Position numbers and translations under genes: made by a program
Assembly (NCBI GenBank): GCA_002010305.1
Contig: MTND01000009.1
Location: 18,805 to 82,804, forward strand
From: Archaeoglobi archaeon JdFR-42
GTDB lineage: Archaea; Halobacteriota; Archaeoglobi; Archaeoglobales; JdFR-42
Direction: 5' to 3'
Length of the DNA stretch: 64,000 bases
Notes under the pieces: generated by a model
The model's database searches: none
What the model saw: only the letters and a program-made list of their open reading frames with translations
Told to the model about the DNA's origin: nothing
Part shown: positions 35,642-60,457 of the stretch, piece by piece
Layout: each line of letters opens with the position of its first letter
Position numbering within the stretch: position 1 is the stretch's first letter

Positions 35642-35650
35642 TTTTTACCC

Positions 35651-37435: not shown

Positions 37436-37451
37436 TTCATAATCCCCAATT

Positions 37452-43286: not shown

Positions 43287-43314
43287 ACTTTGTTTCCTCC
43301 TTTTTTATCTGTAG

Positions 43315-43479: not shown

Positions 43480-43480
43480 G

Positions 43481-43999: not shown

Positions 44000-44003
44000 G
44001 ACC

Positions 44004-44201
44004 TCACCTTCGGATTTCTACCCTCCAGTGATCTTCTTCTTTAATACTCTTGCATGAATATCCTTTCTGGGTAAGCATCTGGATGAGAGGAACAGGATTT
44101 ACTTCTACGATCAAATCCAATTCCCCTTCTTCCTCAAGCTTCTGTATGACGAGAGGAGGCCTCTCAGGATGAGGTATTTTTCTGACATCAAGGGTTGTCA
44201 T
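44004..44201 (-). CDS. DUF2249 domain protein
   Basis: 65 aa. LDVRKIPHPERPPLVIQKLEE ... LIVEVNPVPLI. Confidence 0.65.
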   Translation of the reverse strand: MTTLDVRKIPHPERPPLVIQKLEEEGELDLIVEVNPVPLIQMLTQKGYSCKSIKEEDHWRVEIRR

Positions 44202-44480
44202 CTAAACCTCCTTCAACATTTCTTCAACTTCTTTATCCCGTATGTAGTCTACTACTTTGATCTCTATTTCCTTCGCTCCCGCTTCCCTTACTGCCTTTTT
44301 AATGGCCACTGCCAGTTGCATTCCAATAGGACAGAAAGGACTGGAAGGTTTGAAGGTTAGCTTAACCAAATCTCCATCCACTGTCAGATCCTCTATGAGA
44401 CCCATATCATACACACTCTGAGCTGTATGAGGGTCCATCACATTTTTTAATTTTTCAATTACTTCTTCTTGTGTTACCAT
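44202..44480 (-). CDS. DUF59 / MIP18-family Fe-S assembly-related protein
   Basis: VMDPHTAQSVYDMGLI ... SSPFCP motif. AGGTGAT lies 5 nt upstream of the ATG. Confidence 0.7.
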   Translation of the reverse strand: MVTQEEVIEKLKNVMDPHTAQSVYDMGLIEDLTVDGDLVKLTFKPSSPFCPIGMQLAVAIKKAVREAGAKEIEIKVVDYIRDKEVEEMLKEV

Positions 44481-44767: not shown

Positions 44768-45763
44768 TCATGTCTTCCTTCTTCTTTTCTCATATACTGA
44801 ATTCAAAATTCCCATTATACCTTTGGGAGTTGCAATTATAACAACTATTATAAGAATACCTATGAATATCAGATAATTACGGAAAGTCGTACTCACATAG
44901 TTGATGAACAACACCATGATGGCTGTACCAATGATAGGGCCAGCAATGGTTCCGGACCCCCCAATCAGAGTCCATATAACCGGTTCACCTGAAACGGCTA
45001 TGGTAAAGAGGTTGGCACTAGTGTAGTGAGAGATCAGATTGGCATTTAATGCTCCACTCAGACCAGCAAATCCCCCAGCAACTATGAAAGAAGTTAGTTT
45101 AATCCTCTTGACATTATAACCGATAACGGATGCTCTTAGTTCGTTTTCCCGTATAGACTGAAGAACTTTTCCATATGGAGATTCAACTATCCTCTTGTAT
45201 ATAAGAAAGGCAATTACAAAAAAGATTAGGGCAAAATAATAATCGTTGGTGAGATTGTGGAAAGAGATTGTTGTACCAAAAAACTTCCAGGCTGGCACTC
45301 TGAAGGTTAAACCATCATCTCCTCCAGCAATCCATTTCCAGTTTAATGCAGCGAGATACATCACAACTGAGAATATTATAGTGATAATAGCAAAATAGAG
45401 ACCTGTCACTCTTATAGCAAAAAAACCGATCAACCATGCCGCACCGAGGCACACTATTACAGCAAAAAGGATAGAGGTGAGAAAACCCCCTGAGAGGTGC
45501 TGAATGGTGAGAGCTACCGTGCTGGCACCCAGACCGTAGAATATAGACTGGCCAAAGCTCAGTTCACCGGTATAACCGAATAGAACATTGAATCCCATGG
45601 CAAAAATACTGAATACCAGAATTTGAGTTACCAGCACTTTATAGAAATAACCCAGAAAGGGCTGAAGAATGGCTATAACTATCACCACCACTGTAAATAT
45701 AAAGTAATAAAGGATCTCTTTATTGAGAGCAAATAACTTTCTCTCCATTGGATTTGATCCCAT
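44768..45763 (-). CDS. livM: branched-chain amino acid ABC transporter permease (LivM type)
   Basis: Polytopic membrane protein with a LivM-like pattern. GGAGGT lies upstream of the ATG. Confidence 0.8.
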   Translation of the reverse strand: MGSNPMERKLFALNKEILYYFIFTVVVIVIAILQPFLGYFYKVLVTQILVFSIFAMGFNVLFGYTGELSFGQSIFYGLGASTVALTIQHLSGGFLTSILFAVIVCLGAAWLIGFFAIRVTGLYFAIITIIFSVVMYLAALNWKWIAGGDDGLTFRVPAWKFFGTTISFHNLTNDYYFALIFFVIAFLIYKRIVESPYGKVLQSIRENELRASVIGYNVKRIKLTSFIVAGGFAGLSGALNANLISHYTSANLFTIAVSGEPVIWTLIGGSGTIAGPIIGTAIMVLFINYVSTTFRNYLIFIGILIIVVIIATPKGIMGILNSVYEKRRRKT

Positions 45764-45776: not shown

Positions 45777-46634
45777 CTAACGCTTGAACAACCCCTTTGG
45801 ACGCACAAGCAACACAACAGCTAAAACCAGCAGCGATATCATTCTGGCCTCTGTAGGATTGAGTAGCACACTGCCTATTCCTTCAAGCTCTCCGATGATT
45901 ATGGCTCCAATCAGGGTTCCCTTCAGACTACCTATACCCCCGACAATGACAACGATAAAAGCCAGGACTGTCATTTCCAAGCCCATACTATACTCGATGG
46001 CAAGAATCGGAGAAGCCAGAACTCCTCCAATAGCTCCCAGAGCAGCTCCCAGTCCAAAAGTCCACATAAAGACACGGTTTACTGGAATACCCATAGCCAT
46101 GGCCATATCTCTATCCTGAGTTGATGCACGGATCCACAAACCAAATTTCGTACGATAGAGCATAAAATACAGACCTATCAGAATTATGACAGCGATAATT
46201 CCCACTACAATTCTGTATATGGGATAATCAAAGGATAGTGCATGGAATGACTCAGTAATGGGTGGCTCAATTCGTCTTGGAGCACCTCCAAATACAATGA
46301 GCGCCACATGCTGAAACACAAAAATTAAACCGAAAGTTGCAATTAGAATTCGTATAGGATCGTCCTCAATGGGTCTTAAAATCCCTCTCTCAATGGCAAC
46401 GCCCAGAAAAAACACCACTACTATAGCAACTCCAAGACCGGGCCAGAAAAATCCGAGTTTATCTATGGCAAAAAAGCCAATAACAGCCCCAATCATATAT
46501 AGTTCTCCATGTGCCACGTTAGGGACATCCATTGTAAGAATGAGAGATAAACCTAGAGTGATCAGGGCAAGTATTAAACCCCATACAATTCCATTAATAC
46601 CTCCCAATATCAGCTGATCTATCATATTCTGCAC
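45777..46634 (-). CDS. livH: branched-chain amino acid ABC transporter permease (LivH type)
   Basis: 285-aa polytopic protein with a LivH-like pattern (NVAHGELYMIGA). Confidence 0.8.
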   Translation of the reverse strand: MQNMIDQLILGGINGIVWGLILALITLGLSLILTMDVPNVAHGELYMIGAVIGFFAIDKLGFFWPGLGVAIVVVFFLGVAIERGILRPIEDDPIRILIATFGLIFVFQHVALIVFGGAPRRIEPPITESFHALSFDYPIYRIVVGIIAVIILIGLYFMLYRTKFGLWIRASTQDRDMAMAMGIPVNRVFMWTFGLGAALGAIGGVLASPILAIEYSMGLEMTVLAFIVVIVGGIGSLKGTLIGAIIIGELEGIGSVLLNPTEARMISLLVLAVVLLVRPKGLFKR

Positions 46635-46658: not shown

Positions 46659-47966
46659 TTACATTTTTGTGTAATCTATCTCAGCCGGATACATAGAGTC
46701 TTCCATTGGAATTTCCCATTTCACTTTTAGTTTGCCGTTTTCAACCCTAGACATCCATGTCCTGACGAAGGCTTGATGATCCTGAGCCCTCATATAGAAG
46801 GGTCCCTGGGGATAGGATTTACTTTCCTCACCCCTCATATCCTCAATGGTCTGGATCAACTCCATATTGTCATCCTTGCTTTCCCATCCACTCTTTTCAA
46901 TAGCTTCTTTGAGAAGGAATACAGTCTCAAAATGAGCCCAATAATGAGAACCCACTACAACATTTTTGGGATCATTCACATCTCTTCCTTCAGGATCGAC
47001 TCCACATGCTTCTCTGAAAGCTCTGTGGTATGGCGTATCGAGGCCTTCAAGTCTTCTTGGTAAATATTCTAACATCCATTGGCCTTCTATAATGTCCTTA
47101 ATACCCTCAGTATCTATCCCGTCATTGGCACATATCACACTGAATAGCTCTGCTTCTTTACCCAGCTCTCTGTAAGTGTTCAGGAATCCAATGGTAGTTG
47201 ATCCCAAGGTTGCATAGTACACTGCATCTGATTCATCTGCTATTTTGCTTACATAGGGAACCAGATCCTTAGAACCAAGGGGTATTGGCACGTCTGCTAC
47301 CACTTTTCCCCCATACTCCTCAACTTTCTTTGAGAACCAGTCTCTGTGAGATTGACCCCATGCGTAGTCCAGATATACAATACTCCACTTCTTTCCGATG
47401 TTTTCCAGAACCCAGTCTCCAGCGGCCTCAACCTGAAGTCTTACTTCTGTAATCAATCTGAACATATACCTGTTCCCTTTACTGGCTGTTATAGCATGCG
47501 ACATTCCGGTCGGAAAATACAGAGTGTTGAACTGTTCTGCAAGAGGAGCACTGGCGATACACACTCCAGAATGAACGGATCCGAGAACAAAATCAGCATT
47601 CTGCTCCAGAATTAGCTTTTTCATTTTTTCTGCTCCGACATCTGCTTTAGTCTGAGTGTCTTCAGGCCCCACATACTCAACTGGTCTGTCTGCAATACCT
47701 CCCATCTGATTTACAATGTCTATGGCTGCTTTCGTTGCCCGGTCATACCACAGGCCATAAGTAGCAAGCAGTCCGGTCATTTCATACTGACCGCCTATTC
47801 GTATTGGTTTTCCTTCAGGTTTGGGTGTCTCCTCGGGCTTCTTTTCCGGTGTTGGAGTTGGTTTCTCTTCAGCACATCCAAGGAACGAGGATCCGAGTAG
47901 AAGAGTGCTCCCTACTGCCACCCCCTTGAGGAAATCCCTCCGAGTTACTCCATAGTATTTCCTCAT
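46659..47966 (-). CDS. ABC transporter substrate-binding lipoprotein (LivK/amide-binding family) with a Tat-type signal
   Basis: MRKYYGVTRRDFLKG twin-arginine motif, the LGC lipobox-like cysteine, a P/T/E/K-rich linker, then a type I periplasmic-binding fold. The ATG at 47966 is preceded by GGTGA. Confidence 0.8.
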   Translation of the reverse strand: MRKYYGVTRRDFLKGVAVGSTLLLGSSFLGCAEEKPTPTPEKKPEETPKPEGKPIRIGGQYEMTGLLATYGLWYDRATKAAIDIVNQMGGIADRPVEYVGPEDTQTKADVGAEKMKKLILEQNADFVLGSVHSGVCIASAPLAEQFNTLYFPTGMSHAITASKGNRYMFRLITEVRLQVEAAGDWVLENIGKKWSIVYLDYAWGQSHRDWFSKKVEEYGGKVVADVPIPLGSKDLVPYVSKIADESDAVYYATLGSTTIGFLNTYRELGKEAELFSVICANDGIDTEGIKDIIEGQWMLEYLPRRLEGLDTPYHRAFREACGVDPEGRDVNDPKNVVVGSHYWAHFETVFLLKEAIEKSGWESKDDNMELIQTIEDMRGEESKSYPQGPFYMRAQDHQAFVRTWMSRVENGKLKVKWEIPMEDSMYPAEIDYTKM

Positions 47967-48022
47967 CCAATTCACCACAATTCAACATGATTAAATTAAT
48001 ATATATCTTTATCGATACCTGA

Positions 48023-48964
48023 TTATCGATGACCCCCGGTGAGTAACTGTCCATCTTCTACCAAAGGAGATCCGTCCACCTTTAATGTAGAATTTAAGAT
48101 CATGGCGTCAATATGGATCGCGCTCCTGATCTTTCCCCCAATGGTGTGATTATCCCCAAATGCAATATGAATACTCCCCATAACCTTCTTGGCCATCGCA
48201 AGATTTTCTTCGAGGCTCGCCCATCTACTCGTTCCCACAGCTATTTCACATACCACACTGGAATTTATATCTCGCTGAAAGATGTTCTCCAATCTCCTAT
48301 CTCCATCCACCGAGACTACCTTTCCTTCTCTAATTTCCAAGATCGTTGGTTCTTTAAGCCATCCAATATTATCGACTGGGCCATTAATCAGTAGAACACC
48401 ATTGGTTTTAACTTCATCAGGGGTGATTGCACATTCTCCATCAGGAAGAGCACAAAAAGTGCCTTTCTCAAGAGCCATCCCGTAAAGAGGAATGGATTTT
48501 CTGCCCTGGAGACTGAATTCCAGCGTACCGGCAGAGGTCTCAATTATTCCTTCTTTTCCTTTATTAAAAATATCTGCTACCTGCTCAGTGACCCATTTCA
48601 GTTCTTGGTAATCTACTTCCCCTGCTTTTTTTAAAAGATCCTCTGAAACTCCCCTCAAAATGAGAGTTCTTGCTCCTTTTCTGCTGGCTTTGATTCTAGC
48701 CTGGGTATGGGTTATGGAAGCGGATGTTGCTCCCACTATGACATCTGACGCCATCATCAAAGATTCTGTAAGACTATTGAGTTCTTCATTGTGATATCTT
48801 CTCAAGGGAGTCAGAGCGAGTAGTGTCTCATTATTCATCTTGGAAGCCGCCTCAAAAAAATATTTTGCTATAGACAGCTTATCTTCATCCGTTACTACAC
48901 AGATTTTCTCGTCTTTCTTAACTCCAAGATTCTCTTTTAATATTTTTTGAGCCAGATCTATCAT
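48023..48964 (-). CDS. M29 (AmpS / aminopeptidase T / NicX-like) family protein
   Basis: 313 aa with the overall pattern of short archaeal M29 homologues (ICVVTD..., HIAFGDN). 4-nt overlap with nrpR. Confidence 0.55.
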   Translation of the reverse strand: MIDLAQKILKENLGVKKDEKICVVTDEDKLSIAKYFFEAASKMNNETLLALTPLRRYHNEELNSLTESLMMASDVIVGATSASITHTQARIKASRKGARTLILRGVSEDLLKKAGEVDYQELKWVTEQVADIFNKGKEGIIETSAGTLEFSLQGRKSIPLYGMALEKGTFCALPDGECAITPDEVKTNGVLLINGPVDNIGWLKEPTILEIREGKVVSVDGDRRLENIFQRDINSSVVCEIAVGTSRWASLEENLAMAKKVMGSIHIAFGDNHTIGGKIRSAIHIDAMILNSTLKVDGSPLVEDGQLLTGGHR

Positions 48965-49920
48965 GGCATCTCCAGAGAATTGTAGTCCAGTACATCAACC
49001 ATAATCTCTACTTCCACCTCTATTCCTCTTTCCTGTGCAACTGCCAGAGGAGTAGATGACGTTGCAAGAGCCACACCCGCCCTGTCCACACTCACCGGGA
49101 TGCCAAGAACTTCCTGATTTGGCTTGCCTATACTGAGAACACCATCAATATAGTACTCCTCAAGCTTTTTCTTAATTTTGATCAGTTCGTTATAGGCTAT
49201 TCCTGGTACTTCCCTGAAAGTGGCTGGACACTCACCATCACCCTTATCCAGCACACTTAAAACAGAATAAGGTCTAGCTGAAAAAAGCTCTAGAGAACTT
49301 ATAGATGCAGATTCATATCCCACCATATCGATAAATCTCACAGGAACGAAGTCTTTGAATTCCACAACTCCTCCATATCTCAGATTGACGTTCATCCCAT
49401 GTCTGAGCAGTATACCATCAATTGCAATACCACTGATGTAGTACAACCCAACTTCATTATGGTTCAACAAAGCATTGGTTTCTGTGGTCTTAACCAAGGG
49501 GGAGGTGGCAAGTCCAAGTCGGTAGCATTCCTTGAATATATCGAGAATCTGATCCAGATACTTTCTTTCAAATTTACACAGATTCACAAGGATCTCACCG
49601 GTTCCACTTTCAATATCAAAATTAGAACGGTACATCTGCTCTTCTTTTTTAGCCAGAAAGGAGCCCACACGATACGGAACATTTGCCCTCTTCAATTCAG
49701 ACAGACCTTTCGAAGTAATTTTCCTTCCAAAGTTCCCAACTTTCGTTATATATCCCCTTTCTTCAAGAATCCTAAGGTGATATCGTATCGCTGCTTCACT
49801 TAGCTCGAGACCTATTTCCTTCAACTTATCTGAAAGTTTTCTGGAGCCAATGGGCCCTGTCTCTTCTTTTACTATACTCAGTATAGTGTGCCGTACTTTA
49901 TCATCTGATAACAGCATCAC
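48961..49920 (-). CDS. nrpR: nitrogen regulatory repressor NrpR-like (wHTH + one NrpR domain)
   Basis: N-terminal GSRKLSDKLKEIGLELSEAAIRYHLRILEERGYITKVG wHTH, followed by a ~230-aa NrpR-type domain. Confidence 0.75.
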   Translation of the reverse strand: MMLLSDDKVRHTILSIVKEETGPIGSRKLSDKLKEIGLELSEAAIRYHLRILEERGYITKVGNFGRKITSKGLSELKRANVPYRVGSFLAKKEEQMYRSNFDIESGTGEILVNLCKFERKYLDQILDIFKECYRLGLATSPLVKTTETNALLNHNEVGLYYISGIAIDGILLRHGMNVNLRYGGVVEFKDFVPVRFIDMVGYESASISSLELFSARPYSVLSVLDKGDGECPATFREVPGIAYNELIKIKKKLEEYYIDGVLSIGKPNQEVLGIPVSVDRAGVALATSSTPLAVAQERGIEVEVEIMVDVLDYNSLEMP

Positions 49921-50217: not shown

Positions 50218-51381
50218 ATGCGGTTAAAGATCTCTCAAATAGGGACTATTCTTTCAGGAGATATCTCGAATCCAATTTTAAAAGGAGACTGCATCGTTGT
50301 AGAAAACAATACTATTACCTTTGTGGGTTATGAGGAGGACTATGATGGGAAAGTTGACAAGGAAATAGATGCCAGAGGTATGACTGTCACTCCAGGATTG
50401 ATTGACTCCCATGTTCATCCTGTTCTCGGCGACTTCACTCCTCGGCAACGAACCCTTGATTTCATAGACAGTTCTCTTCATGGAGGAGTTACTACCATGA
50501 TTTCTGCTGGTGAAGCCCATACACCTGGTAGACCCAGAGATATAGCTGGCATCAAAGCTCTCGCTATTCTGGCTAAAAAATCCTTTGAAAATTTCAGACC
50601 AAGCGGAGTAAAAGTACACGCGGGAGCACTTATCTTAGAGAAAGGACTGGTTGAAAAAGATTTTGAGGAAGTTACAGCCCAGGGAGTATGGCTTGTTGGA
50701 GAAATAGGATTGGGTAGCATTTTTACACCCGAAGATGCTAAACCCATGGTTGAGATGGCCCAGAAATACGGGATGAAGGTAACCATGCATACGGGAGGGA
50801 CTTCCATCCCGGGAAGCAGTACTGTTACAGCCGATGATGTGATGGCCATCGAGCCAGATGTAGTATCCCATATAAACGGAGGGCCGACCGCTATCGCTAT
50901 AAATGAATGTCTGAAGCTCGTGGATGAGACCGATTTTCCCCTCGAACTTGTCCATTGTGGGAATCCAAAAGTGCTTATTGAAGTTATCAATGCTGTGGAG
51001 GATAGAGGGGATTTACACCGCATAATTGTTGGAAATGACGCTCCTTCAGGTACAGGTGTCATTCCTCTTGGGATTCTCAGAACTTTGTGTTTGATATCTT
51101 CAATTGGGGGTATATCAGGAGATCTAGCTGTTGCAATGGCCACAGGAAACACTAGATCAGTGTTCGGCCTTAACACGGGCATTATCGAAATAGGGAAAGA
51201 GGCGGATCTTGTGATTATGGATGCGCCAATGGGGAGTGTAGGAAACACTGCTGTAGAAGCAATAGAGGCTGGAGATGTACCGGGTATTGCTCTTGTCATG
51301 ATAGATGGGGAGATTAGGGTGGTAAAGAGCAGGAACACACCCCCGCCCGAGAGGATGGTTAAAATTAAGGAGGTGGAATAG
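50218..51381 (+). CDS. amidohydrolase superfamily protein, enamidase-like
   Basis: GLIDSHVHP metal motif, MHTGGTSIPGSS, VSHINGGP and GNDAPSGTG. GGTGAT SD lies upstream. Confidence 0.6.
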   Translation: MRLKISQIGTILSGDISNPILKGDCIVVENNTITFVGYEEDYDGKVDKEIDARGMTVTPGLIDSHVHPVLGDFTPRQRTLDFIDSSLHGGVTTMISAGEAHTPGRPRDIAGIKALAILAKKSFENFRPSGVKVHAGALILEKGLVEKDFEEVTAQGVWLVGEIGLGSIFTPEDAKPMVEMAQKYGMKVTMHTGGTSIPGSSTVTADDVMAIEPDVVSHINGGPTAIAINECLKLVDETDFPLELVHCGNPKVLIEVINAVEDRGDLHRIIVGNDAPSGTGVIPLGILRTLCLISSIGGISGDLAVAMATGNTRSVFGLNTGIIEIGKEADLVIMDAPMGSVGNTAVEAIEAGDVPGIALVMIDGEIRVVKSRNTPPPERMVKIKEVE

Positions 51382-52263
51382 ATGAAGATAACTCATGGAT
51401 TGATGGGGTCTCTTGTGACTCCTTTTACCAACGGAGAAGTAGATGAGAACAGTTTGAGAAGGCTCATCAATTTTCTCCTTGAGCAGAATGTGGATAGTGT
51501 TTCCACAACTTTGCCAACAGGGGAATTTACAAGCCTGAATTTTGACGAGATGAAAAAGGTAATAGAGATCACCGTTGACGAGGTTAATGGCAGAGTCCCT
51601 GTATGTGCTGGAACAGGCTGGAGTGCAACCAGAGAGACCATAGAATTGAGTAAATTTGCTGAAGATGTCGGAGCTGATGGAGTGATGCCTGTAGTTCCTT
51701 TTTTCGTGAGACCCATGGATAAGGGCATTTTAGCTCACTTCAATGAACTAGCAGAAAAAATCAACATACCCATAATTGTGTACAATGGCCCGGGTAGAAC
51801 AGGGGTTAATCTCAAACCAGAGGTTGTAAAAGAATTGAGCTCTCTTGAGAATATAGTGGGGGTTAAAGAAACAGATAGAGAAATGAGTCAGGTGTACAAA
51901 GTGATACAGATGACGGAAGGGAAAGTGGATGTAATGCAGGGATGGGAAGATCTCCTCCTTCCTTCCCTCGCTCTGGGAGCTACAGGAGTGGTATCAGTAG
52001 CCGCAAGTGTGATAGGAAAGGATATTGCCGAAATGATTAAAGCTTTCAATAAGGGAGACTTAAATAAAGCCAGGGAAATTCATTACAGCATACTTCCCAT
52101 CCTTGACGCTCTTTTCTGTGAATCCAACCCTGTTCCTCTGAAAGAAGCTCTTTTTATGATGGGTGCCATAGAATCTCCGGAAGTTCGTAAACCCCTTATG
52201 CCCATGTTGGAGACCAATAGAGAGGGGCTCAAAAACATCTTGTCAGAAAGGGGATACATTTAG
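51382..52263 (+). CDS. DapA/NAL-family class I (Schiff-base) aldolase
   Basis: LPTGEFTSL (GxTGE-type), VYNGPGRTG (Tyr motif) and VGVKETD (Schiff-base Lys context). The start abuts the upstream stop. Confidence 0.7.
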   Translation: MKITHGLMGSLVTPFTNGEVDENSLRRLINFLLEQNVDSVSTTLPTGEFTSLNFDEMKKVIEITVDEVNGRVPVCAGTGWSATRETIELSKFAEDVGADGVMPVVPFFVRPMDKGILAHFNELAEKINIPIIVYNGPGRTGVNLKPEVVKELSSLENIVGVKETDREMSQVYKVIQMTEGKVDVMQGWEDLLLPSLALGATGVVSVAASVIGKDIAEMIKAFNKGDLNKAREIHYSILPILDALFCESNPVPLKEALFMMGAIESPEVRKPLMPMLETNREGLKNILSERGYI

Positions 52264-53174
52264 CAAAATTCAATTTTTTCATACTCTTTTTTTAGTGTAA
52301 TTCCTTTTAAATCTTCGGGGTACATGGCAACATAGTTTCCCACTTTGATTATACAGGCTTTTACACCCATCTGTTTAGCTCTTTCAAAACCATTTTTTAA
52401 GGCCTCTTTCTGCTCTTCCTTGGTTAACTTTCCTACTCTCACCACTATTTCTTCTCTTGGAATGTCCGTCAATGGTTGTAATACTCCTGCTTTTACCTTC
52501 TTAATAGCCGGTGAATCCACAGAGACTGAATTACCGATTACTGTCGCAAAAGCATCTGCCATAGAAGCAGAGTTTTCAATGCAAGTTACTGCATCAGCTA
52601 TTCCTTTAGTAAAACTTCTCCCCCCAAACCCACTGGTACAAATCCCTCCAGCTACTTTCTCATCACTTATGGGCGGTTCTATTTCCAAATAACCAAAATG
52701 TGTTCCTGAGGCATCAATTAGCCCAACTATCAGTTTACTCGCCTTAAAAGCTATGTCACCATAGTTATTGACCACGATTTTATCCAGTCCGTTCTCCCCC
52801 AGTTCTTCCAGCTCTTTGACCATGAGTTCAGCAATACTTCCTGCCACGGCAGCCATTGGAGTGATTGGTTCACCACTCTTTCTCCAGACTGTTTGAGCTG
52901 CTCTGAACATCATTGCTACCACATCTGGTACATCTCTCCGCAATTCTTCCGGTTCTCTTTCTTCAACCCATCTGAAAAGGAGATCTTTGTGAGATGAGAC
53001 TTCCGATAATAGCTTTACCGCTTTCAATACGCATTTATCCATCACTTCTTCCGTGAAAATACTTCTATTTTCTTTTTCTGCCGTAATAACCAGACCCATA
53101 GGACCCAAGTAAATGTGCAATCTTCCACGGGCATCTATAAAAGTATTCAGATCATTATAATCTCTCAATTTCAT
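52260..53174 (-). CDS. UPF0280 / ApbE-like family protein
   Basis: ICTSGFGGRSFTKGIADAV and ADAFATVIGN resemble the ApbE motifs (ATSG.Y, AKG.A.D, ADA.sTA). 304 aa. Confidence 0.55.
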   Translation of the reverse strand: MKLRDYNDLNTFIDARGRLHIYLGPMGLVITAEKENRSIFTEEVMDKCVLKAVKLLSEVSSHKDLLFRWVEEREPEELRRDVPDVVAMMFRAAQTVWRKSGEPITPMAAVAGSIAELMVKELEELGENGLDKIVVNNYGDIAFKASKLIVGLIDASGTHFGYLEIEPPISDEKVAGGICTSGFGGRSFTKGIADAVTCIENSASMADAFATVIGNSVSVDSPAIKKVKAGVLQPLTDIPREEIVVRVGKLTKEEQKEALKNGFERAKQMGVKACIIKVGNYVAMYPEDLKGITLKKEYEKIEFC

Positions 53175-54894
53175 GTTCTCTCAAAAATTTGCTTAATGGA
53201 GTTACATTCTTAAGATGTCCTCCTATCCGGATAAATACATCTTTAGGCATGGTGTACTCCATAGGGGCAACTGTAGCTGGTGTGGGTATGTATGTGAACG
53301 GTCTCTCACCCATCACCTTTTCAACGTCCACATAGAAGTTTATTCCCCCTCCCGGTAATATGAAAGCCTTTGCTCCCCCTACAGTTACTTTTATTTCACC
53401 TTTATGCACTGCTTCAGTCACTGCTAGAGGGTTATTTGCTATACCGGCTCGAGCGCTACCTCCAACCCCTCCGCAGTAAAGGGCCGATACCTTAGCCTTT
53501 TCACAGTTTTTAGAGATGGTTTTAACAACATCCAATGCCTTTTTATCCGGTTCAATTTCCTTTAAATTCTTTTTTTCTAAGATAAACACGGAAATATGAT
53601 CGCCTGTTGTATCTGTAACAAGAATTCTCATTCCGTCCCAGGCTTGATCAAAATCGATAGATCGGATTGCATCTCTTGGATCTTTTACAGGGGTTCCACC
53701 GATTCCATCTCCATGTTCACCAAAATACCTCCCGTCTGTGCTCTTAATTCCAAAAGGAACTACACCAGAATATTTCATCCCCAAGAACTTGCCTGCTGAA
53801 TGTTCTGAAAGTAGACCAGTTATATGAGAATCCAGCACTATTACCTCATCAGCCACTTCTTTCAACAGGGGTGCAAACATGGCTATTACGGCACTTCCAC
53901 ATCCAAGACGCATTCTTTTAATAACTTCTCCATTGATGACCGGAGGTTTACCAATCTTCACACTCACTTTCACTCTCTTTCTCCCGACTCTGAGTTCCAC
54001 TTCTTCTCCGTTGGCTATTTCAACAACAGTCCTAGCAGCAGTAATTCCATTTTTACCCTGGAATACATTTACCCCACCGATATCTATCATTTTAGAACCA
54101 TATTCCTCTGTAACGATCATACCTACCTTTTTCCCATTTCTGTAAACAGCCTCACCTTCTTCACCGATGAACTCATCCGTGTCAATCTTCAACTTTAATA
54201 AACTAAAACTGAGAGGTGTAGCAGAAACAACGGTAACCACATCCACATCTTCTACAGTGTCCTCAACTATCACAGGAGCAGGAACAAAACATGGCTGAGT
54301 ATTGCCAGCACCAACCCCAGTAACCAGCGGTAAATCTGGAGTTTTCTCTGAGGGAACCGCGATTTTCCTGGCAAGGACTAATGAACCATTCAAATTTTTA
54401 TATCTCAGACAAGCTCCCAGATCTCCTTCTTTAATCTGACAGTTAACAGGACAGTAAGAACATATCACACCCTCAGAGGGATGAATTGAGATAGCATTTT
54501 TGGGACAAACCTTAACACATGTATTACAGTCGACGCAGATGGATGGATTTACATATGCCCTATCTTCTCCAAGGGAAATCGCTTTTTTCGGACACTCCTG
54601 TACACAGACTCCACATTTATTGCAGACATCTGAAACTACAGCATCTCCGCCTCCAATGGGTGGAACAATAACAACAGAATCCCCTTCCTGTATCTCCTCT
54701 GATTCAAAATCTTTCCAGATTACTTTACCATTGATCATAACCCTCGCATGCAACCCCCGTTCGAAAAGAGAATATTTTTCGTTCAGCGTATCAATGAGTT
54801 CCTGAACGGTACCTGTGTATAAGCTTATTATTTCTTTATCTTTTCCAGTTACATCCCTGATATTCGCCAGATATGTTACCCTGATCTCTTTCAT
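53155..54894 (-). CDS. MoaD/ThiS-like domain + 2x[4Fe-4S] ferredoxin domain + third Cys cluster + large uncharacterised catalytic domain (possibly 6-hydroxynicotinate-reductase-like)
   Basis: Residues 1-83 fit a MoaD pattern ending PPIGGG. Then CNKCGVCVQECP, CVDCNTCVKVCP and CSYCPVNC-x9-C. About 410 aa follow with no motif I recognise. Confidence 0.55.
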   Translation of the reverse strand: MKEIRVTYLANIRDVTGKDKEIISLYTGTVQELIDTLNEKYSLFERGLHARVMINGKVIWKDFESEEIQEGDSVVIVPPIGGGDAVVSDVCNKCGVCVQECPKKAISLGEDRAYVNPSICVDCNTCVKVCPKNAISIHPSEGVICSYCPVNCQIKEGDLGACLRYKNLNGSLVLARKIAVPSEKTPDLPLVTGVGAGNTQPCFVPAPVIVEDTVEDVDVVTVVSATPLSFSLLKLKIDTDEFIGEEGEAVYRNGKKVGMIVTEEYGSKMIDIGGVNVFQGKNGITAARTVVEIANGEEVELRVGRKRVKVSVKIGKPPVINGEVIKRMRLGCGSAVIAMFAPLLKEVADEVIVLDSHITGLLSEHSAGKFLGMKYSGVVPFGIKSTDGRYFGEHGDGIGGTPVKDPRDAIRSIDFDQAWDGMRILVTDTTGDHISVFILEKKNLKEIEPDKKALDVVKTISKNCEKAKVSALYCGGVGGSARAGIANNPLAVTEAVHKGEIKVTVGGAKAFILPGGGINFYVDVEKVMGERPFTYIPTPATVAPMEYTMPKDVFIRIGGHLKNVTPLSKFLREHEIERL

Positions 54895-56735
54895 GAGACT
54901 AAACCCAGTTCTTTAAGTTTTTCTTTATGTGGTATGCCATTTTCACTCCATCCTCTTAAACGGTAATATTCATCTAGCATGACTTCCAGTTCTACCACCT
55001 GATTTAAGGCTCCTTTGCTGGGATTGGGCTCATGGGTAAACCTTTTAGGAAGGGTATCATCTTTTCTTGTTACACCATGCTTAACAAGATACATTCTTTC
55101 AAGATTGATTATTCTTTCCCCTATGACCATCAGATCCTTCTCAGTAAATCTCACTCCCGTAGCAAAGGTTAACAATCTCGCCATATGCTCTACTGAAAAC
55201 CCATAAATAAGGTTGGTCATGAATTCACAAATTCCAAGAGAATCTGCCAGAGCTGCCACATGCTCACTCCATATTACTAACTTGGCCTTTCCTTCCACGG
55301 CAAATCTGTCAGAGGCTTTTTCTGTTCCAAACATCTCTTTTGCTCTTTCTGGTGGAAAGGCATACTCTGCTGTTGGAAGAGCCCTCAAATGATCGCCACC
55401 TCGACTTGCAACAGCATATCCAAGACCATAAGCTTTTTTTCCTCTTGGATCCGAAGCACAATGTAACAGCCCCTTTGTATGGATTACAAATTCTTCCCCA
55501 CCCAGCTTTTTTGCGGCTTCATAAGCTCCCTCAGCTAGGATGTCACCGAACCCTTCCCGATGAGCAATCATATCTACAAGGCGAATGATGGAGTCACTAT
55601 CTCCCCATTTAAGCTCAAAACCCACTGTTTTTTTATCTATAATGCCTTTTTCGTAAGCCTCCAGAGCCCAGCTCACCGTTCTAGAGGTGGTTATAACATC
55701 CAGTCCAAGCTTGTTCAGCATAGTATTGAGATATAGCACTGCCTCAGGATCTGATATCCCACATCCTGATCCAAAACCTCCAGTTTGCTCATATTCAGGC
55801 CCCTCACCATATGTTTTATACTTACCATCTTTCACCACATAAAAATGACTGCAATGGATGTAACACATATAGCAACCTTTACTCTTGGTTATATATTTAT
55901 CCAGCAATGTTTCAGCGCTTAAATTTTCAGCAAATTCAAAATCCCCTCTTTGACTGTTATAGGTATTCAGCCACCCCTGTTCATTGGCTATCATTAATAG
56001 GGCTGGAGTTCCGTATGTCGAAAGGCTTCGAGCCATAGGATCAGTCAGTATATCATCTCTGGTTGCAAGAGCTTCTTCAAGGAATTTATCAGGATCATAC
56101 AGACTCACACCTTTCGTCCCTCTAACCACAACACCCTTGAGATTCTTTGAGCCCATCACAGCACCCATGCCACATTTTCCTGCTGCTCTAGACAGGTTAC
56201 TCAGAACACATGCAGTTTTAACAAGATTTTCTCCAGCAGGTCCTATCACAAGTGTTTGGGCTTCTATATCGGTCTCTTCCCTGAGAATTCTATCGGTTTC
56301 CCAGACATTCTGGCCCCATATGTGATTGGCATTTCTTATCTCAATATCATCATCCCTGATTGAGATGTAACAGGGCGTTTTTGCCTTACCTGTCACAATA
56401 AGATGGTCATAGCCAGCAAATCTGAGCTCTGGTCCAAAGTGCCCTCCACTATTTCCATCACAGAGCATTCCATTTATCGGAGACTTTGAGGTGACTGTCC
56501 ATCTGCCTGAAGAAGGAGCGAATGTTCCTCCAAGGGGACCTGTTCCTACAATAAAGGGATTTTCTTCACTGAATGGATGTGTATTCTCATCTGTAAGGTC
56601 ATAAAGTAACTTCGAGTTTCCACCTCGTCCACCTAGAAAATTCAGCCTGATGTCTTCGGGCGTTGGATATACCTTGACATTACCTGATGAAAGGTCCACT
56701 TTGACAATTCTTCCACTCCACCCATAAATATTCAT
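54891..56735 (-). CDS. aor: aldehyde:ferredoxin oxidoreductase family tungsto/molybdopterin enzyme
   Basis: GWSGRIVKVDLSSG start and the LGGRGG motif. 614 aa with typical AOR layout. Confidence 0.85.
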   Translation of the reverse strand: MNIYGWSGRIVKVDLSSGNVKVYPTPEDIRLNFLGGRGGNSKLLYDLTDENTHPFSEENPFIVGTGPLGGTFAPSSGRWTVTSKSPINGMLCDGNSGGHFGPELRFAGYDHLIVTGKAKTPCYISIRDDDIEIRNANHIWGQNVWETDRILREETDIEAQTLVIGPAGENLVKTACVLSNLSRAAGKCGMGAVMGSKNLKGVVVRGTKGVSLYDPDKFLEEALATRDDILTDPMARSLSTYGTPALLMIANEQGWLNTYNSQRGDFEFAENLSAETLLDKYITKSKGCYMCYIHCSHFYVVKDGKYKTYGEGPEYEQTGGFGSGCGISDPEAVLYLNTMLNKLGLDVITTSRTVSWALEAYEKGIIDKKTVGFELKWGDSDSIIRLVDMIAHREGFGDILAEGAYEAAKKLGGEEFVIHTKGLLHCASDPRGKKAYGLGYAVASRGGDHLRALPTAEYAFPPERAKEMFGTEKASDRFAVEGKAKLVIWSEHVAALADSLGICEFMTNLIYGFSVEHMARLLTFATGVRFTEKDLMVIGERIINLERMYLVKHGVTRKDDTLPKRFTHEPNPSKGALNQVVELEVMLDEYYRLRGWSENGIPHKEKLKELGLVS

Positions 56736-57199
56736 CAGACCACCCTTTCTCCAGAAAGAAATCTTTTTACGAGCTCAATCCTTTTTTCACTCCCGGATTT
56801 AAATTCTTCACCGAAGAATATAGCATGGGTGGGACATATTGTCGCGCAAAAAGGGTCTCCACCACATAGATCGCACTTAATAGGTCTATTCCCCCTGACA
56901 GATATTGATCCAAAGGGACAGGCGATAACACATAACTTGCAACCAATGCATCTCTCATCATTTATTATAACGGCTTTTCCCTCCCGTACTACTGCCCCAA
57001 CTGGACACACATTCATACAAGGAGGGTCCTCACAGTGAAAACATAGCACAGGAAAATCTATTCCTTTTTCTTCGAATTTAACTACCTTCACTCTGGAAAA
57101 TGATGGATTCGCTATTTTTTCTTTTATCAAAGAACAACCAGACTCACATATCCTGCAACCGGTGCATTTATCCGGGTCGGATAACAGGATGAACTCCAT
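56735..57199 (-). CDS. 4x[4Fe-4S] ferredoxin-domain electron-transfer protein
   Basis: CTGCRICESGC, CFHCEDPPCMNVCP, CIGCKLCVIACP and CDLCGGDPFCATICP. Start is at 57199 or 57226. Confidence 0.8.
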   Translation of the reverse strand: MEFILLSDPDKCTGCRICESGCSLIKEKIANPSFSRVKVVKFEEKGIDFPVLCFHCEDPPCMNVCPVGAVVREGKAVIINDERCIGCKLCVIACPFGSISVRGNRPIKCDLCGGDPFCATICPTHAIFFGEEFKSGSEKRIELVKRFLSGERVV

Positions 57200-57240
57200 A
57201 ATACCACGTCGCCAATTGCTTATCATCTTACGATATTTAA

Positions 57241-58278
57241 TTATTTCGAATTTATTGAATTAAATACCTCTAAAACTTCTATTGTGAGTTCAATGGAGCT
57301 ACTGGACTTTTTAGCAGATAGTGGATCGAATTCACATATATCAAGGCCCACCACATTGCAATTTTTGATGATCCAAATAACAGAGTCGATAAATGGTTTA
57401 CACCCAATTCCGTTATAGTCATTAAATCTAACTCCAGAGATGCATGTGCCTGATGCCACATCCAAATCGATGGACAGCAAGACTGGTTGCCTTTCGAAAC
57501 CTTTCATCACTTTTTTAAAAAATCCTGCAGGATTGCTCCTGAGTCTATCTCTCTGTATGATTTTCACACCCTGTTTTTCAAATCCAGTGTAGAAATCCAG
57601 ATATTTCTTTACTCTTTCATCATCGATTTCCCATGCATGTTCAGGGGGATAGTCTGCCACTCCAGCTACAACAGTATTTTCAGGGTTCACAATGTTATTT
57701 TCCCATAGATGATACAGATATGAATCAGCATTGTAAGAATTGGGCCTTCCATAGATATACGGGTTGTATAGAGAATATCTGGATTCAGGATTTGTCTCAG
57801 CATCATACTGGATCAAATTGCATCTGATTTCCGGTATTATAGCATCAAAATGAGCATCCAGTACCACATATACAAGATTTTCATAGATATTCGAAAGATA
57901 CTCTGCCAGTCCTCCCGAAAGACTGTGATCAACTCCCACCATCACAGGAATTCCTTCCGCATGATTAACACATGCCTTGAATACTTCCTCTGCATACTCA
58001 TAACATCCATTCGAGTCTATAAAAGCCACAAAGTTATCCACAGTGAGCATGGGTAAATCATATATATCAGGAACAGGTCGCAACCAACTTTCCACTTCAA
58101 TTTTAAAAAAAGAGACACCAACTCGTTTCTCTAGTTCAGTGGATGGATCTATCCAAGAGAGACTAGATGGGTTTAAAACCGCCCTCCTTTTACTTTCTAT
58201 TCTTGGTTCCCTTTCATCTGGATCAAGAGAACAGCTGAGGAACCAACATTCACCGGCAAAATCCCTCATTGAACTCAT
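57241..58278 (-). CDS. ureohydrolase (arginase / agmatinase / formiminoglutamase) family protein with an N-terminal extension
   Basis: VGVDHSLSGG, VLDAHFDA and LSIDLDVASG give a complete binuclear-Mn ligand pattern. The start overlaps the upstream gene by 20-29 nt. Confidence 0.7.
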   Translation of the reverse strand: MSSMRDFAGECWFLSCSLDPDEREPRIESKRRAVLNPSSLSWIDPSTELEKRVGVSFFKIEVESWLRPVPDIYDLPMLTVDNFVAFIDSNGCYEYAEEVFKACVNHAEGIPVMVGVDHSLSGGLAEYLSNIYENLVYVVLDAHFDAIIPEIRCNLIQYDAETNPESRYSLYNPYIYGRPNSYNADSYLYHLWENNIVNPENTVVAGVADYPPEHAWEIDDERVKKYLDFYTGFEKQGVKIIQRDRLRSNPAGFFKKVMKGFERQPVLLSIDLDVASGTCISGVRFNDYNGIGCKPFIDSVIWIIKNCNVVGLDICEFDPLSAKKSSSSIELTIEVLEVFNSINSK

Positions 58279-59284
58279 CAGCAGCCTTTACCATGGCTTT
58301 AAGATTATCCAGAGGTGCCTGAGGAGGTATGGCACACGCACCACATAGCACATCAATCCCATCTTTCAAAGCCTGGAGGGAGAGCTCTTTCACCACCTCA
58401 GGAGTTCCATTGAGCAATCCCTCTACCGTTGGGACGTTGCCGAACAGAGCCAGTTTTCCACCAAGCTTCTCTTTTGCTGTTTTAACATCCACCATAGAAT
58501 CAAATGAATATGCTTCAAATCCAGAATCTGGAATGAAATCCAAGAAATAGCTGGTATTACCACAAATATGCAATATTATTTCACCCTTTACACTCCTGGC
58601 TATTTCTCTGTAAATAGGAATTAATAATTCTTTGAAACTCCTAGGACTGATTAAATCACCACTAGCAGTCGGGTCTGCTATGCATAAAATGTTTCCGCCA
58701 CTTTCCATCACTCTGTTACCATACTCTATATTGAATTTTGTTACTTCATTCAAACCCTCTTTTACTGCTTCTTTTTCCTTCAATGTCATCCTCAGCATTT
58801 TTTCTGTACCAATCAGATGACCTAAAAGCGTGAAAGGACCGACAATTTGAGGGTATATTGGGAGGAAATCTCCATATTTCTCATTTAATATTTCAAGACT
58901 CTTGAAAACCAGGTCAAACCTTCCTTTCTCAAAGACGTCATCGGTGAAGGTCAATTGAGAGACATCCTCGAAAGCTGGTTTGATCACATATGGATTTCTG
59001 CCCATTTTTCCCATATTTAACGTGCTACCAAAAGCTTCTGCTTCCACTGTTAGTTCGAATGGAACTTTAATACCTTTCAAACCCACCACTTCAAAAGCTG
59101 CAGAGGCTAACTTCACCATCAATTCCACATCAGAGTGAGCTTCTGGCCAGAAGGCATTAACAGCTTTCATTTGATCGAAAGTTGGAGTGGTTAAGGGGCT
59201 CGAGGCCAGTGTTTCACATTCTCTTCCTCTTTTTTTCAGAATATCCTTGGTTAATTCCAGATAATTCATGTTTATCCCTTCCAT
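58250..59284 (-). CDS. uroporphyrinogen decarboxylase (URO-D) superfamily protein, MtaA/CmuA-like methyltransferase type
   Basis: N-terminal pattern FDQMKAVNAFWPEAH, and ILHICGNT plus a late Cys (LCGACAIPP), consistent with Zn ligands of MtaA-type enzymes. GGTGA lies before the ATG. Confidence 0.65.
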   Translation of the reverse strand: MEGINMNYLELTKDILKKRGRECETLASSPLTTPTFDQMKAVNAFWPEAHSDVELMVKLASAAFEVVGLKGIKVPFELTVEAEAFGSTLNMGKMGRNPYVIKPAFEDVSQLTFTDDVFEKGRFDLVFKSLEILNEKYGDFLPIYPQIVGPFTLLGHLIGTEKMLRMTLKEKEAVKEGLNEVTKFNIEYGNRVMESGGNILCIADPTASGDLISPRSFKELLIPIYREIARSVKGEIILHICGNTSYFLDFIPDSGFEAYSFDSMVDVKTAKEKLGGKLALFGNVPTVEGLLNGTPEVVKELSLQALKDGIDVLCGACAIPPQAPLDNLKAMVKAADEFNEGFCR

Positions 59285-59310
59285 TTCACCATTCTCATGT
59301 ATTAAAAAAT

Positions 59311-60456
59311 TTAAAGGGAGCGCTGGACAAGCTCCATTATATCATATACCGGTATCGAGGGCTGAGCATCCTGAAGGTTTCTCACACAGAAAGGACATGA
59401 TGTAACAATTGCCTCTACCCCTAAAGATTCTGCTTCTTTTACCCTATCCTTAGAAGTCTGAATAGCAAGATCTGGGAAAGCTCCTTTAACTCCTCCACCA
59501 GCCCCACAGCAGAAAGAGTTGCCTCTGTTTCTCGGCATTTCAATCAACTCAATCCCAAGCTTGTTCAGTATTTCTCTGGGTTCTTCGTATATCTCAGCAT
59601 GTCTTCCCAAATGACATGGATCATGGTAAGTAACTTTCATACCAAGAGATGCTGAGGGTCCCAGTCGGTCTTTCAGGAACTGGGTTATGTGATAGAAATT
59701 CAGTTTGTCATACCCAGGAAACTCAAAACTGGCATAATCTTTGCTGAGGGTTTTGTAACACCCAGCACATGTAGCGACTACATCCTTAATACCCGTCTCT
59801 TTGATCTTATCAATATTTTCACCCATTACTTGCTCTGCAACATCCCACTGCCCAATTCTGATTAATGGAGATCCACAACAAACCTCATCTTTCCCTAAAA
59901 CTGTGAATTCAATACCCAGCTTGTCAAAGACGTCTGCGGTCGCTTTCGGTATGTGGGGTTCTCTTAAAGCAGCTGTGCATCCTACAAAATACAGCACCTC
60001 TCTTCCATCTGCCTTTTTAACCATCCACTCTTCTTTTTTCTCTGGACTCTCTCCATATGGATTTTTAAACTGGAGAACATTCTGGGATATCCTTTCATGC
60101 TCCTTCAGAGATTTTCCATTTTTAACAGCTTCATATCTGAGAGCCTCAATGGTATTCAGAATTTCAGGCTTGAAATCAGTCTGACATTGATATTCACACC
60201 CACCACACACATTGCATGTAAATAGGGCTTTAATCATGGTGTCACTCCAATCCACTTCTTTATTTAGGATGGCTTTAGCCATTGCTGACTTGGATCTACT
60301 TCCCAGAAAAGCGTCAAATTTGAAAGTATTTCCTTGAGGACAGATGGGAGCAAAAAGTGGAGGAGGACCATAGCTGTAAGCAACTTTACATGTTCCACAG
60401 TAGGTGCACATGTACACCGCATCCTTTAATTCCTCAAGTGTTTTAAACCCCATCAT
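59311..60456 (-). CDS. Fe-S oxidoreductase with two CCG domains (GlcF / HdrD-like)
   Basis: CTYCGTCKVAYS and CNVCGGCEYQC ferredoxin-like motifs. Two CCG motifs (VCCGSP, FCCGAGGG). Confidence 0.8.
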   Translation of the reverse strand: MMGFKTLEELKDAVYMCTYCGTCKVAYSYGPPPLFAPICPQGNTFKFDAFLGSRSKSAMAKAILNKEVDWSDTMIKALFTCNVCGGCEYQCQTDFKPEILNTIEALRYEAVKNGKSLKEHERISQNVLQFKNPYGESPEKKEEWMVKKADGREVLYFVGCTAALREPHIPKATADVFDKLGIEFTVLGKDEVCCGSPLIRIGQWDVAEQVMGENIDKIKETGIKDVVATCAGCYKTLSKDYASFEFPGYDKLNFYHITQFLKDRLGPSASLGMKVTYHDPCHLGRHAEIYEEPREILNKLGIELIEMPRNRGNSFCCGAGGGVKGAFPDLAIQTSKDRVKEAESLGVEAIVTSCPFCVRNLQDAQPSIPVYDIMELVQRSL

Positions 60457-60457
60457 C

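Follow-up and report, generated by a model that had tools for sequence, protein, structure and literature searches.

Which ring is opened by the enzymes encoded at positions 50218-54894 of a 64,000-nucleotide stretch of Archaeoglobi archaeon JdFR-42 (contig MTND01000009.1; hereafter the window, meaning the whole stretch at its full length), and where does the ring-opened product go? A sequence-only reading had placed four genes there, encoding an enamidase-like amidohydrolase (Ena), a DapA-like aldolase, an ApbE-like UPF0280 protein, and an iron-sulfur enzyme resembling 6-hydroxynicotinate reductase (Hnr), and had taken them for a candidate reductive ring-opening module for a substrate other than nicotinate. 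All four genes lie where they had been placed. With some reserve, we favor the view that the locus encodes an archaeal, NrpR-linked version of the branch of nicotinate catabolism that runs through 1,4,5,6-tetrahydro-6-oxonicotinate (THON), probably harvesting the ring nitrogen and removing the resulting aldehyde oxidatively. The core is indeed one of reductive ring opening, but it is not a new module: Hnr-UPF0280-Ena, usually with DUF1185/AA_synth, corresponds in sequence to the known core of the Eubacterium barkeri-type Firmicutes nicotinate cluster. New is the archaeal wiring, namely a MoaD-Hnr fusion, coupling to an aldehyde:ferredoxin oxidoreductase (AOR), a DapA-derived enzyme or an aldehyde dehydrogenase (ALDH) of the methylmalonate-semialdehyde dehydrogenase (MMSDH) type, linkage to NrpR, and the lack of a local hydroxylase and B12 pathway. 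The central features are as follows.

50218-51381, plus strand: ena, predicted enamidase (THON amidohydrolase/deaminase), 387 aa; PDB 2VUN match, motifs, clade-invariant columns
51382-52263, plus strand: DapA-derived enzyme of the dihydrodipicolinate synthase (DHDPS) family, 293 aa; TIGR00674, PDB 2YXG
52260-53174, minus strand: UPF0280 / ApbE-superfamily protein, 304 aa; NF003322, PDB 2O34, PF27030
53155-54894, minus strand: hnr, 6-hydroxynicotinate reductase homolog, 579 aa; match to the Hnr of locus L015
54640-54894, minus strand: MoaD/ThiS (SAMP-like) beta-grasp domain of Hnr, residues 1-85; PF02597, TIGR01687, Foldseek
54475-54639, minus strand: ferredoxin domain of Hnr with two [4Fe-4S] clusters, residues 86-140; Fer4 families, eight invariant Cys, Foldseek matches to clostridial ferredoxins
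53158-54474, minus strand: third Cys cluster and ~420-aa catalytic domain of Hnr; invariant residues, AlphaFold2 model
54891-56735, minus strand: tungsten-type AOR, 614 aa; AFOR_N, AFOR_C, PDB 9MQX_D, 1AOR
56735-57226, minus strand: AorA/PadI-like poly-[4Fe-4S] electron-transfer subunit, 163 aa; Fer4_11 and related families, PadI as best NCBIfam match (E 6e-25)

Consistent with its enamidase-like label, the first gene product matched E. barkeri Ena (PDB 2VUN) over its full length (E 7.8e-152; residues 5-383 against 6-385; 63-65% identity), and the motifs quoted from it were present (HVH at residue 65, MHTGGTSIPGSS at 190, and GNDAPSGTG at 272). In a MAFFT alignment of 205 bacterial Ena-clade sequences, the window protein kept 110 of the 111 columns that were at least 98% conserved, whereas Ena-like paralogs of other loci kept 62-82. 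We read the window amidohydrolase as a true enamidase (EC 3.5.2.18), with catalysis on THON predicted.

As a stand-in for the E. barkeri Hnr sequence we used that of L015 (L015:1344-2843), a metagenomic contig found by searching with the 2VUN sequence, whose Ena is 97% identical to 2VUN. Its gene order (LysR, Hnr, UPF0280, Hgd, NdhFSLM, transporter, Ena, AA_synth, Mgm, Mii, MutL, Dml, Hmd, DmdAB) agrees with what we take to be that of the E. barkeri nic cluster. The resemblance to Hnr was borne out by 48% identity to this reference over 492 aa (E 1e-135), and hundreds of Firmicutes proteins of ~500 aa, among them some annotated as 6-hydroxynicotinate reductase, shared 50-54% identity with the window protein. 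Of the 116 columns with at least 98% conservation across the bacterial clade, the window protein kept 111, against 87-99 in paralogous modules, and archaeal and bacterial Hnrs were 47-54% identical, about as close as the Hnrs of L015 and L008 (55%). The two 4Fe-4S motifs, third four-Cys group, and large unknown domain described from the sequence were all there: CxxCxxCxxxC motifs start at residues 91 and 120 (C91/94/97/101 and C120/123/126/130), followed by C145-x2-C148-x3-C152-x9-C162, and all three groups were invariant in 119 homologs, as were C332-G-S334-A, H365, R389, and GGxGGSxR. S334 of GCGSA never varied among true Hnrs, but L011/L012 have T there and L018/L019 have A; as a marker of UPF0280 pairing it was rejected, showing no clean tracking of UPF0280 presence. 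An AlphaFold2 model of Hnr was confident throughout (pLDDT 94, pTM 0.85), but Foldseek found no solved relative in the PDB for the C-terminal part: matches were to the MoaD and ferredoxin domains only, and the ~420-aa catalytic domain, which has no Pfam family, was uncovered by any of the 50 best matches.

Two features were absent from the sequence-only reading, the first being the MoaD/ThiS domain that forms the ~85 N-terminal residues of Hnr (PF02597 E 5e-13; TIGR01687 E 9e-15; Foldseek matches to 1vjk, SAMP1, and MoaD). This extension was found in all six archaeal-type homologs and in none of the bacterial ones compared. MoaD-like genes are a known theme in aor operons, and the domain, which retains the terminal PPIGGG, here internal to Hnr, is probably the fused remnant of such a gene. 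The 579-aa protein reads as a 6-hydroxynicotinate reductase (EC 1.3.7.1) with an extra N-terminal MoaD-like domain and a predicted ferredoxin-dependent reduction. The second missed feature was the coupled upstream AOR with its Fe-S subunit.

The UPF0280 protein proved ApbE-like in the sense of a shared superfamily, but only distantly: PF02424 (ApbE) was reached by three of seven UPF0280 orthologs, bacterial ones (best E 1.6e-7), and not by the window protein, and a UPF0280 profile matched ApbE 6NXJ weakly (E 0.03). The window protein scored below the 290-bit equivalog cutoff of NF003322 (179 bits, E 1e-52), matched PDB 2O34 (E 7e-5 as a single sequence, 5e-15 as a profile) and the protein encoded 3' of hnr in L015 (30% identity, E 2e-32), and bears the precomputed Pfam label PF27030 AbpE_bact. 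We place it as a seemingly distant ApbE-superfamily member, not an ApbE ortholog. UPF0280 lies directly 3' of hnr wherever a true-Hnr locus has downstream sequence (window, L004, L005, L006/L016, L022, L008, L015, L023, and L024), and a role as Hnr maturation factor is probable. We know of no demonstrated activity in the UPF0280/DUF375 family, and the comparison gives this long-uncharacterized family a testable partner; it does likewise for AA_synth/DUF1185, equally long uncharacterized, which is found beside ena or UPF0280.

The four open reading frames (ORFs) all have very strong homologs (Ena, Hnr, UPF0280, and, for the DapA-like protein, DHDPS Pfam at E 2e-82) and are therefore real genes, none a chance ORF. 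AorA-AOR-hnr-UPF0280 form a translationally coupled series, in which the AorA-like stop and AOR start overlap as TGATG, the AOR stop and hnr start as ATGA, and the UPF0280 start and hnr end by 20 nt. On the opposite strand, the ena stop is followed without a gap by the DapA-like ATG. The DapA-like and UPF0280 genes converge with a 4-nt overlap of their stop codons (52260-52263), leaving no space for terminators between the two operons. Bacterial contamination of the metagenome-assembled genome (MAG) is unlikely because the cluster lies on a 113-kb contig, found as RSFX01000020.1 of assembly GCA_003935005.1 and in JGI 3300037583, and is flanked by archaeal genes, including those for ribosomal proteins L10P/L1, a type II 3-dehydroquinate synthase, an exosome subunit, and NrpR.

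Neighborhood conservation, proposed earlier as a check, was found: five distinct archaeal arrangements were recovered and the core genes stayed together in five or more archaeal lineages as well as in bacteria, with co-occurrence counts resting on ~15 distinct loci from genome and metagenome scans. The window, L004 (GCA_054013995.1), and L022 have in common the order nrpR, ena-dapA-like, UPF0280-hnr; the L022 sequence ends within hnr, and 5' of hnr the window and L004 both carry AOR, AorA, an arginase-family protein, a URO-D/MtaA-like protein, a CCG protein, and an FAD oxidase. L006/L016 are arranged AorA-AOR-Hnr-UPF0280 and, further along, Ena-ALDH-AA_synth-PadH-like flavoprotein-NrpR, the flavoprotein of L016 being PadH/AorC-like. 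On the contig of Ca. Hydrothermarchaeum profundi JdFR-18 (L005/L009/L010/L017), a 60%-identical locus comprises NrpR, an ABC transporter, and Ena-ALDH-AA_synth-relic-Hnr-UPF0280. The same 13.3-kb contig sequence (L009, L010) is filed under two MAG names, 'Thermoplasmatales archaeon JdFR-43' and 'Ca. Hydrothermarchaeum profundi JdFR-18', so that at least one binning assignment is doubtful.

The AOR contains PF02730 and PF01314 and matched 9MQX_D (E 1e-142) and 1AOR (E 2e-139). Aligned with 1AOR, it shows CxxCxxxC, GPEYE, RGGxH, and DSxGxC, which we take to supply the cluster cysteines and the Glu and His near the tungsten. The enzyme is a canonical AOR and a near relative of 1AOR; the corresponding activity is predicted. 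AorA-AOR-hnr-UPF0280 was syntenic in L004, L006, and L016. In the Hydrothermarchaeum locus, a frameshifted relic of the AOR C terminus with in-frame stops lies directly 5' of hnr (L005:9746-9936; also in L009, L010, and L017); contained in 190 nt, it matches AOR residues 528-592 and was gene-called as a 100-aa hypothetical protein. The relic indicates that AOR-hnr adjacency is ancestral and that AOR was lost where an MMSDH-type ALDH adjoins ena.

The fate of the aldehyde can be approached from these dehydrogenases. 2-Formylglutarate, the predicted Ena product, is chemically a 2-substituted malonate semialdehyde, the type of substrate used by the MMSDH subfamily, and an ALDH acting on it should therefore resemble MMSDH. 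This was seen in L005 (484 bits) and L022 (472 bits), both above the 448.5-bit cutoff of TIGR01722 (CoA-acylating MMSDH); the gene lies directly 3' of ena in L005 and ~7 kb from ena, beside transporter genes, in L022. TIGR01722 was also the best match (394 bits) of the ALDH in L024, a Thermodesulfobacteriota locus without the B12 route. These data point to an oxidative-decarboxylative exit to glutaryl-CoA. For the window, we infer that AOR serves aldehyde oxidation, so that the low-potential electrons it gains could be handed back to Hnr.

What the DapA-like protein contributes is bound up with whether it and AOR belong to the module at all. It is a member of the DHDPS family, as had been said (TIGR00674, 294 bits against a cutoff of 206; best PDB match 2YXG, the Methanocaldococcus jannaschii DHDPS), but not a normal DapA. 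In E. coli numbering, cross-checked against the 2YXG alignment, K161 (the Schiff base residue), Y133, and R138 are kept, and the proteins of the window, L004, and L022 carry G43L, T44P, Y106F, and Y107F. The family score and best match, taken with the canonical, broad type of the AOR and with the Hydrothermarchaeum locus, which has neither gene in its visible sequence, would also fit a module of Hnr-UPF0280-Ena alone, beside which a housekeeping lysine dapA and a general aldehyde detoxifier are chance neighbors. We consider this rather unlikely, since T44P and Y107F leave only one of the three catalytic-triad residues in place and, when the 150 closest of 1.84e9 representative proteins were compared, the L43/P44/F106/F107 combination, and indeed Pro44 by itself, occurred in one 50%-identity cluster only. 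Across the 1.84e9 representatives, the sole close relative is the cluster holding the L022 protein (71%), the next being 45% identical and canonical, and the nearest representatives outside the clade read GTTE(S/A)...YY. Chance is further opposed by the position of the gene directly after ena in all three genomes of the lineage (window, L004, and L022), with its gapless TAG-ATG junction, and, for AOR, by the ATGA overlap with hnr, its recurrence beside hnr in L004 and L006/L016, and the relic in L005. The enzyme belongs to a small, derived, isolated, ena-linked clade that should not be called DapA, and the label 4-hydroxy-tetrahydrodipicolinate synthase that automatic annotation gives to it is almost certainly wrong. 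One candidate reaction is Schiff-base decarboxylation of 2-formylglutarate to glutarate semialdehyde, the DHDPS family having a decarboxylating member, KdgD; alternatively, the enzyme is a candidate to fill the role of AA_synth. The two genes were mutually exclusive, the three DapA-like loci lacking AA_synth and the AA_synth loci lacking the DapA-like gene.

An archaeal THON branch under NrpR could then operate as follows. 6-Hydroxynicotinate would be imported, probably through the adjacent ABC transporter; alternatively nicotinate would be the starting compound, with its hydroxylation left to an enzyme whose gene lies elsewhere. Hnr, an Fe-S flavoenzyme presumably matured by UPF0280, would reduce 6-hydroxynicotinate with low-potential electrons to THON, which Ena would hydrolyze to 2-formylglutarate and NH3. 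In the window, the DapA-derived enzyme and tungsten AOR would carry the aldehyde on to glutarate, with glutarate semialdehyde as a possible intermediate, and the AOR electrons would return via the AorA-like polyferredoxin to Hnr, so that ring reduction balances aldehyde oxidation. In the sister archaea, the MMSDH-type ALDH would instead convert 2-formylglutarate to glutaryl-CoA and CO2. Expression would be gated by NrpR according to nitrogen status.

Several observations weigh against this scheme. The NdhFSLM nicotinate dehydrogenase had no match in the window or any archaeal locus (tblastn panel, Pfam), leaving the source of 6-hydroxynicotinate unexplained; the hydroxylase may be encoded elsewhere in the genome or the compound taken up from neighbors. 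Pfam scans of the window turned up no genes for the breakdown of glutarate or glutaryl-CoA. AOR and ALDH occur together in L006/L016 and are hence not simple alternatives. L022 has the DapA-derived gene together with an MMSDH-type ALDH, which weakens the DapA-derived enzyme as a decarboxylase feeding AOR and favors the AA_synth role; for the same co-occurrence, the idea of the enzyme as a plain substitute for the ALDH was dropped. All six archaeal Hnrs have R174L, E225A, Y230F, T336V, and W535Y at positions at least 98% conserved in bacteria, changes that could reflect a modified substrate or partner. As to the hint that the ApbE-like neighbor attaches flavin to Hnr, the ApbE-type [ST]GA[ST] target motif (Dxx(s/t)gA(T/S)) is absent from both the window and L015 Hnrs. 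Lastly, the intergenic region between nrpR and ena showed no NrpR operator of the Methanococcus maripaludis type.

From the absence of a nicotinate hydroxylase and the presence of a DapA-family aldolase, the sequence-only reading had favored another N-heterocycle, such as a pyridine or pyridone carboxylate or a pyrimidine-like ring, over 6-hydroxynicotinate and THON. No molybdenum hydroxylase lies beside any archaeal copy, AA_synth is replaced by the DapA-derived enzyme, the five archaea-wide Hnr substitutions fall at otherwise invariant positions, and bacterial paralogous Hnr-like/Ena-like modules (L011, L012, L018, and L019) indicate that the enzyme pair can be retargeted. Those same paralogs, however, lose the clade-invariant Ena and Hnr columns that the window proteins keep almost entirely, and archaeal and bacterial Hnrs have diverged about as far as two bacterial ones. 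The argument for a substrate different from nicotinate is therefore weak; from the near-full retention of these columns the ring substrates are most likely 6-hydroxynicotinate and THON, and we judge action on another ring unlikely. Very doubtful is a scheme in which AOR and its AorA-like subunit replace the molybdenum nicotinate dehydrogenase, hydroxylating C6 and passing two electrons to Hnr so that nicotinate to THON becomes a redox-neutral hydration: AorA-AOR does sit directly 5' of hnr, where NdhS-L-M sits in L018, L019, and L008, no archaeal locus has Ndh, and L006/L016 with their ALDH would not need AOR for aldehyde removal, but the AOR is canonical and near 1AOR with its active-site pattern unchanged, it has decayed in Hydrothermarchaeum beside intact hnr and ena and is dispensable there unless another copy exists, and to our knowledge no AOR-family enzyme hydroxylates heterocycles. 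Just as improbable, we think, is the bolder version in which AOR/polyferredoxin took over nicotinate hydroxylation into the fused MoaD-Hnr and the DapA-derived enzyme performs a new Schiff-base reaction on the ring-opened product, which if true would be the first AOR-family heterocycle hydroxylation and a new DHDPS-family activity.

The proposed THON branch is set among the following neighboring genes.

57241-58278, minus strand: divergent arginase-family protein; Pfam/NCBIfam
58250-59284, minus strand: URO-D/MtaA-like protein; score above the methylcobalamin:CoM methyltransferase subfamily cutoff
59311-60456, minus strand: CCG/HdrD-GlcF-like Fe-S protein; Pfam/NCBIfam
60458-61918, minus strand: GlcD-like FAD oxidase; Pfam/NCBIfam
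48961-49920, minus strand: NrpR-family nitrogen repressor, divergent from ena; PF08461, PF01995
44768-47978, minus strand: branched-chain-amino-acid-type ABC transporter (binding protein 46659-47978; permeases 45777-46634 and 44768-45763); Peripla_BP_6, BPD_transp_2

The first four (57241-61918) continue the compact AorA-AOR-hnr-UPF0280 operon with gaps of at most 26 nt; their order is the same in L004, and the block is absent from the L006/L016 locus. A canonical arginase-family protein is encoded elsewhere in the window (16209-17066; Pfam Arginase E 7e-75). The suggestion that the NrpR neighbor fits nitrogen scavenging gained from the comparison, NrpR adjoining the module in all five archaeal loci (window, L004, L005, L016, and L022). 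GGAA-N6-TTCC occurred twice in the window, both times within genes and at chance level, and the nrpR-ena intergenic regions of three genomes aligned with TATA-like and start-proximal conservation only. A branched-chain-type ABC transporter adjoins the module in the window, L004, L022, and L005 and is the candidate uptake system.

Between nrpR and the transporter lies a minus-strand gene (48023-48964) for a 313-aa M29-peptidase-family protein with the precomputed Pfam label PF26233 'NicX'; it overlaps the nrpR stop, precedes the transporter, and is absent from L004 and L022. Close kinship to NicX, the dioxygenase of the aerobic nicotinate pathway, was rejected, no PDB relative being found at E 0.01. 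Adjoining the transporter on its other side, 42111-44480 encodes a COX1-like haem-copper oxidase family protein with small DUF2249 and ScdA_N/DUF1858 proteins and an Fe-S assembly protein, and looks like an NO or O2 detoxification cluster. Further away, a rubrerythrin and a flavodiiron-type protein are encoded at 17577-19291, and a 625-aa fusion of prephenate dehydrogenase, chorismate mutase, prephenate dehydratase, and an ACT domain (30232-32109, minus strand) lies within an aromatic amino-acid/tryptophan biosynthesis block (30232-41199).

Bacterial relatives of the core were of several kinds. Thermanaeromonas toyohensis (L008) has the order NdhFSLM-Ena-Hnr-UPF0280-AA_synth-Hgd-Hmd-Mgm-Mii-MutL-Dml-Dmd, and in Tepidanaerobacter acetatoxydans Re1 (L007) one nic cluster holds two ena genes 8 kb apart (~64-66% identity), one beside AA_synth and a fumarate-reductase-like flavoprotein, the other beside NdhFSLM and hnr. 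Minimal paralogous modules without Ndh or the lower pathway were found in Clostridia (L012:6315-12621 and L011:5418-11512); they contain AA_synth, two tandem Ena-like proteins (31-43% identical to the window Ena), and an Hnr-like protein (37-39%), with UPF0280 next to it in L012 only, and probably act on a different heterocycle. In L018/L019, a further paralogous set comprises an NdhS-L-M-like enzyme (34-38% to the E. barkeri type), an Hnr-like protein (45-47% to that of the window; S334A, H365G), and an Ena-like protein (42%), with no UPF0280 in the sequence visible. L024 (GCA_052744235.1) encodes a TRAP transporter, the MMSDH-like ALDH, NdhS-F-LM, Ena, Hnr, UPF0280, and AA_synth, and 3 kb downstream there is a gene resembling those for quinolinate/nicotinate phosphoribosyltransferases.

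As the sequence-only reading had supposed, we found no characterized archaeal pathway with this gene set in the open-access literature, nor any report there linking archaea or Hydrothermarchaeota to enamidase or nicotinate catabolism; breakdown of nicotinate or of pyridine rings is not known to have been characterized in any archaeon. By this comparison the reductive THON route is present both in the window locus and in four or more related archaeal lineages, one of them Ca. Hydrothermarchaeum of the subseafloor crust. There it appears linked to NrpR, with tungsten or ALDH chemistry standing in for the B12 pathway.

Among known systems, the cluster reported for nicotinate fermentation in E. 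barkeri, here represented by L015, L008, and L023, is like the archaeal loci in its orthologous Hnr (48%) with the same Fe-S motifs, its Ena (63-65%), and a UPF0280 gene overlapping the hnr end. The canonical clusters carry NdhFSLM and/or Hgd-Hmd-Mgm-Mii-Dml-Dmd; in contrast, tblastn and Pfam found none of the lower-pathway genes (Hgd, Hmd, Mgm, Mii, DmdAB, Dml) in the window or archaeal loci, which also lack NdhFSLM, and the window lineage in addition lacks AA_synth. Archaeal Hnr further differs by its MoaD-like domain and by the AOR/AorA coupled to its gene, and NrpR stands where the E. barkeri type has LysR. L024 resembles the archaeal L005/L016 in combining Ena-Hnr-UPF0280-AA_synth with an MMSDH-like ALDH, the same oxidative logic in place of a B12 lower pathway, but it keeps the NdhS-F-LM hydroxylase and a TRAP transporter and has no AOR, DapA-derived gene, or NrpR. 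The AorABC enzyme of Aromatoleum aromaticum (PDB 8C0Z) and Pyrococcus furiosus AOR (1AOR) correspond to the window pair of AOR catalytic subunit and poly-[4Fe-4S] partner; unlike them, the window has its MoaD-like module fused to Hnr and an AOR operon that runs directly into hnr-UPF0280. E. barkeri Hnr is said to contain covalently bound flavin, and UPF0280, paired with such an enzyme, belongs to the same superfamily as the ApbE/Ftp FAD:protein FMN transferases (PF02424; PDB 6NXJ). The window UPF0280 is nevertheless cytoplasmic and falls in the separate UPF0280/DUF375 family (PRK04334; PDB 2O34).

Closest in the fate of the carbon is the aerobic route of Azorhizobium caulinodans, in which 6-hydroxynicotinate is converted to THON, the ring is opened hydrolytically, and NH4+ is released; the order thereafter is reportedly decarboxylation, oxidation to glutarate, and then glutaryl-CoA. 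This Azorhizobium-type THON cluster was already described in a 2012 paper on Bradyrhizobiaceae (PMC3511419), where the pathway runs via glutarate and the cluster contains a putative ABC transporter for nicotinate along with two conserved, functionally uncharacterized proteins. The archaeal loci would be alike in sending carbon via glutarate rather than the B12 route, and are alike in their ABC transporter and in the link to nitrogen supply (PMC3511419). They differ in that the bacterial cluster encodes its own nicotinate hydroxylase and its hosts are aerobes, and in that aldehyde oxidation would here fall to a tungsten AOR and, in the sister archaea, to an MMSDH-type ALDH, with the DapA-derived enzyme present as well in the window.

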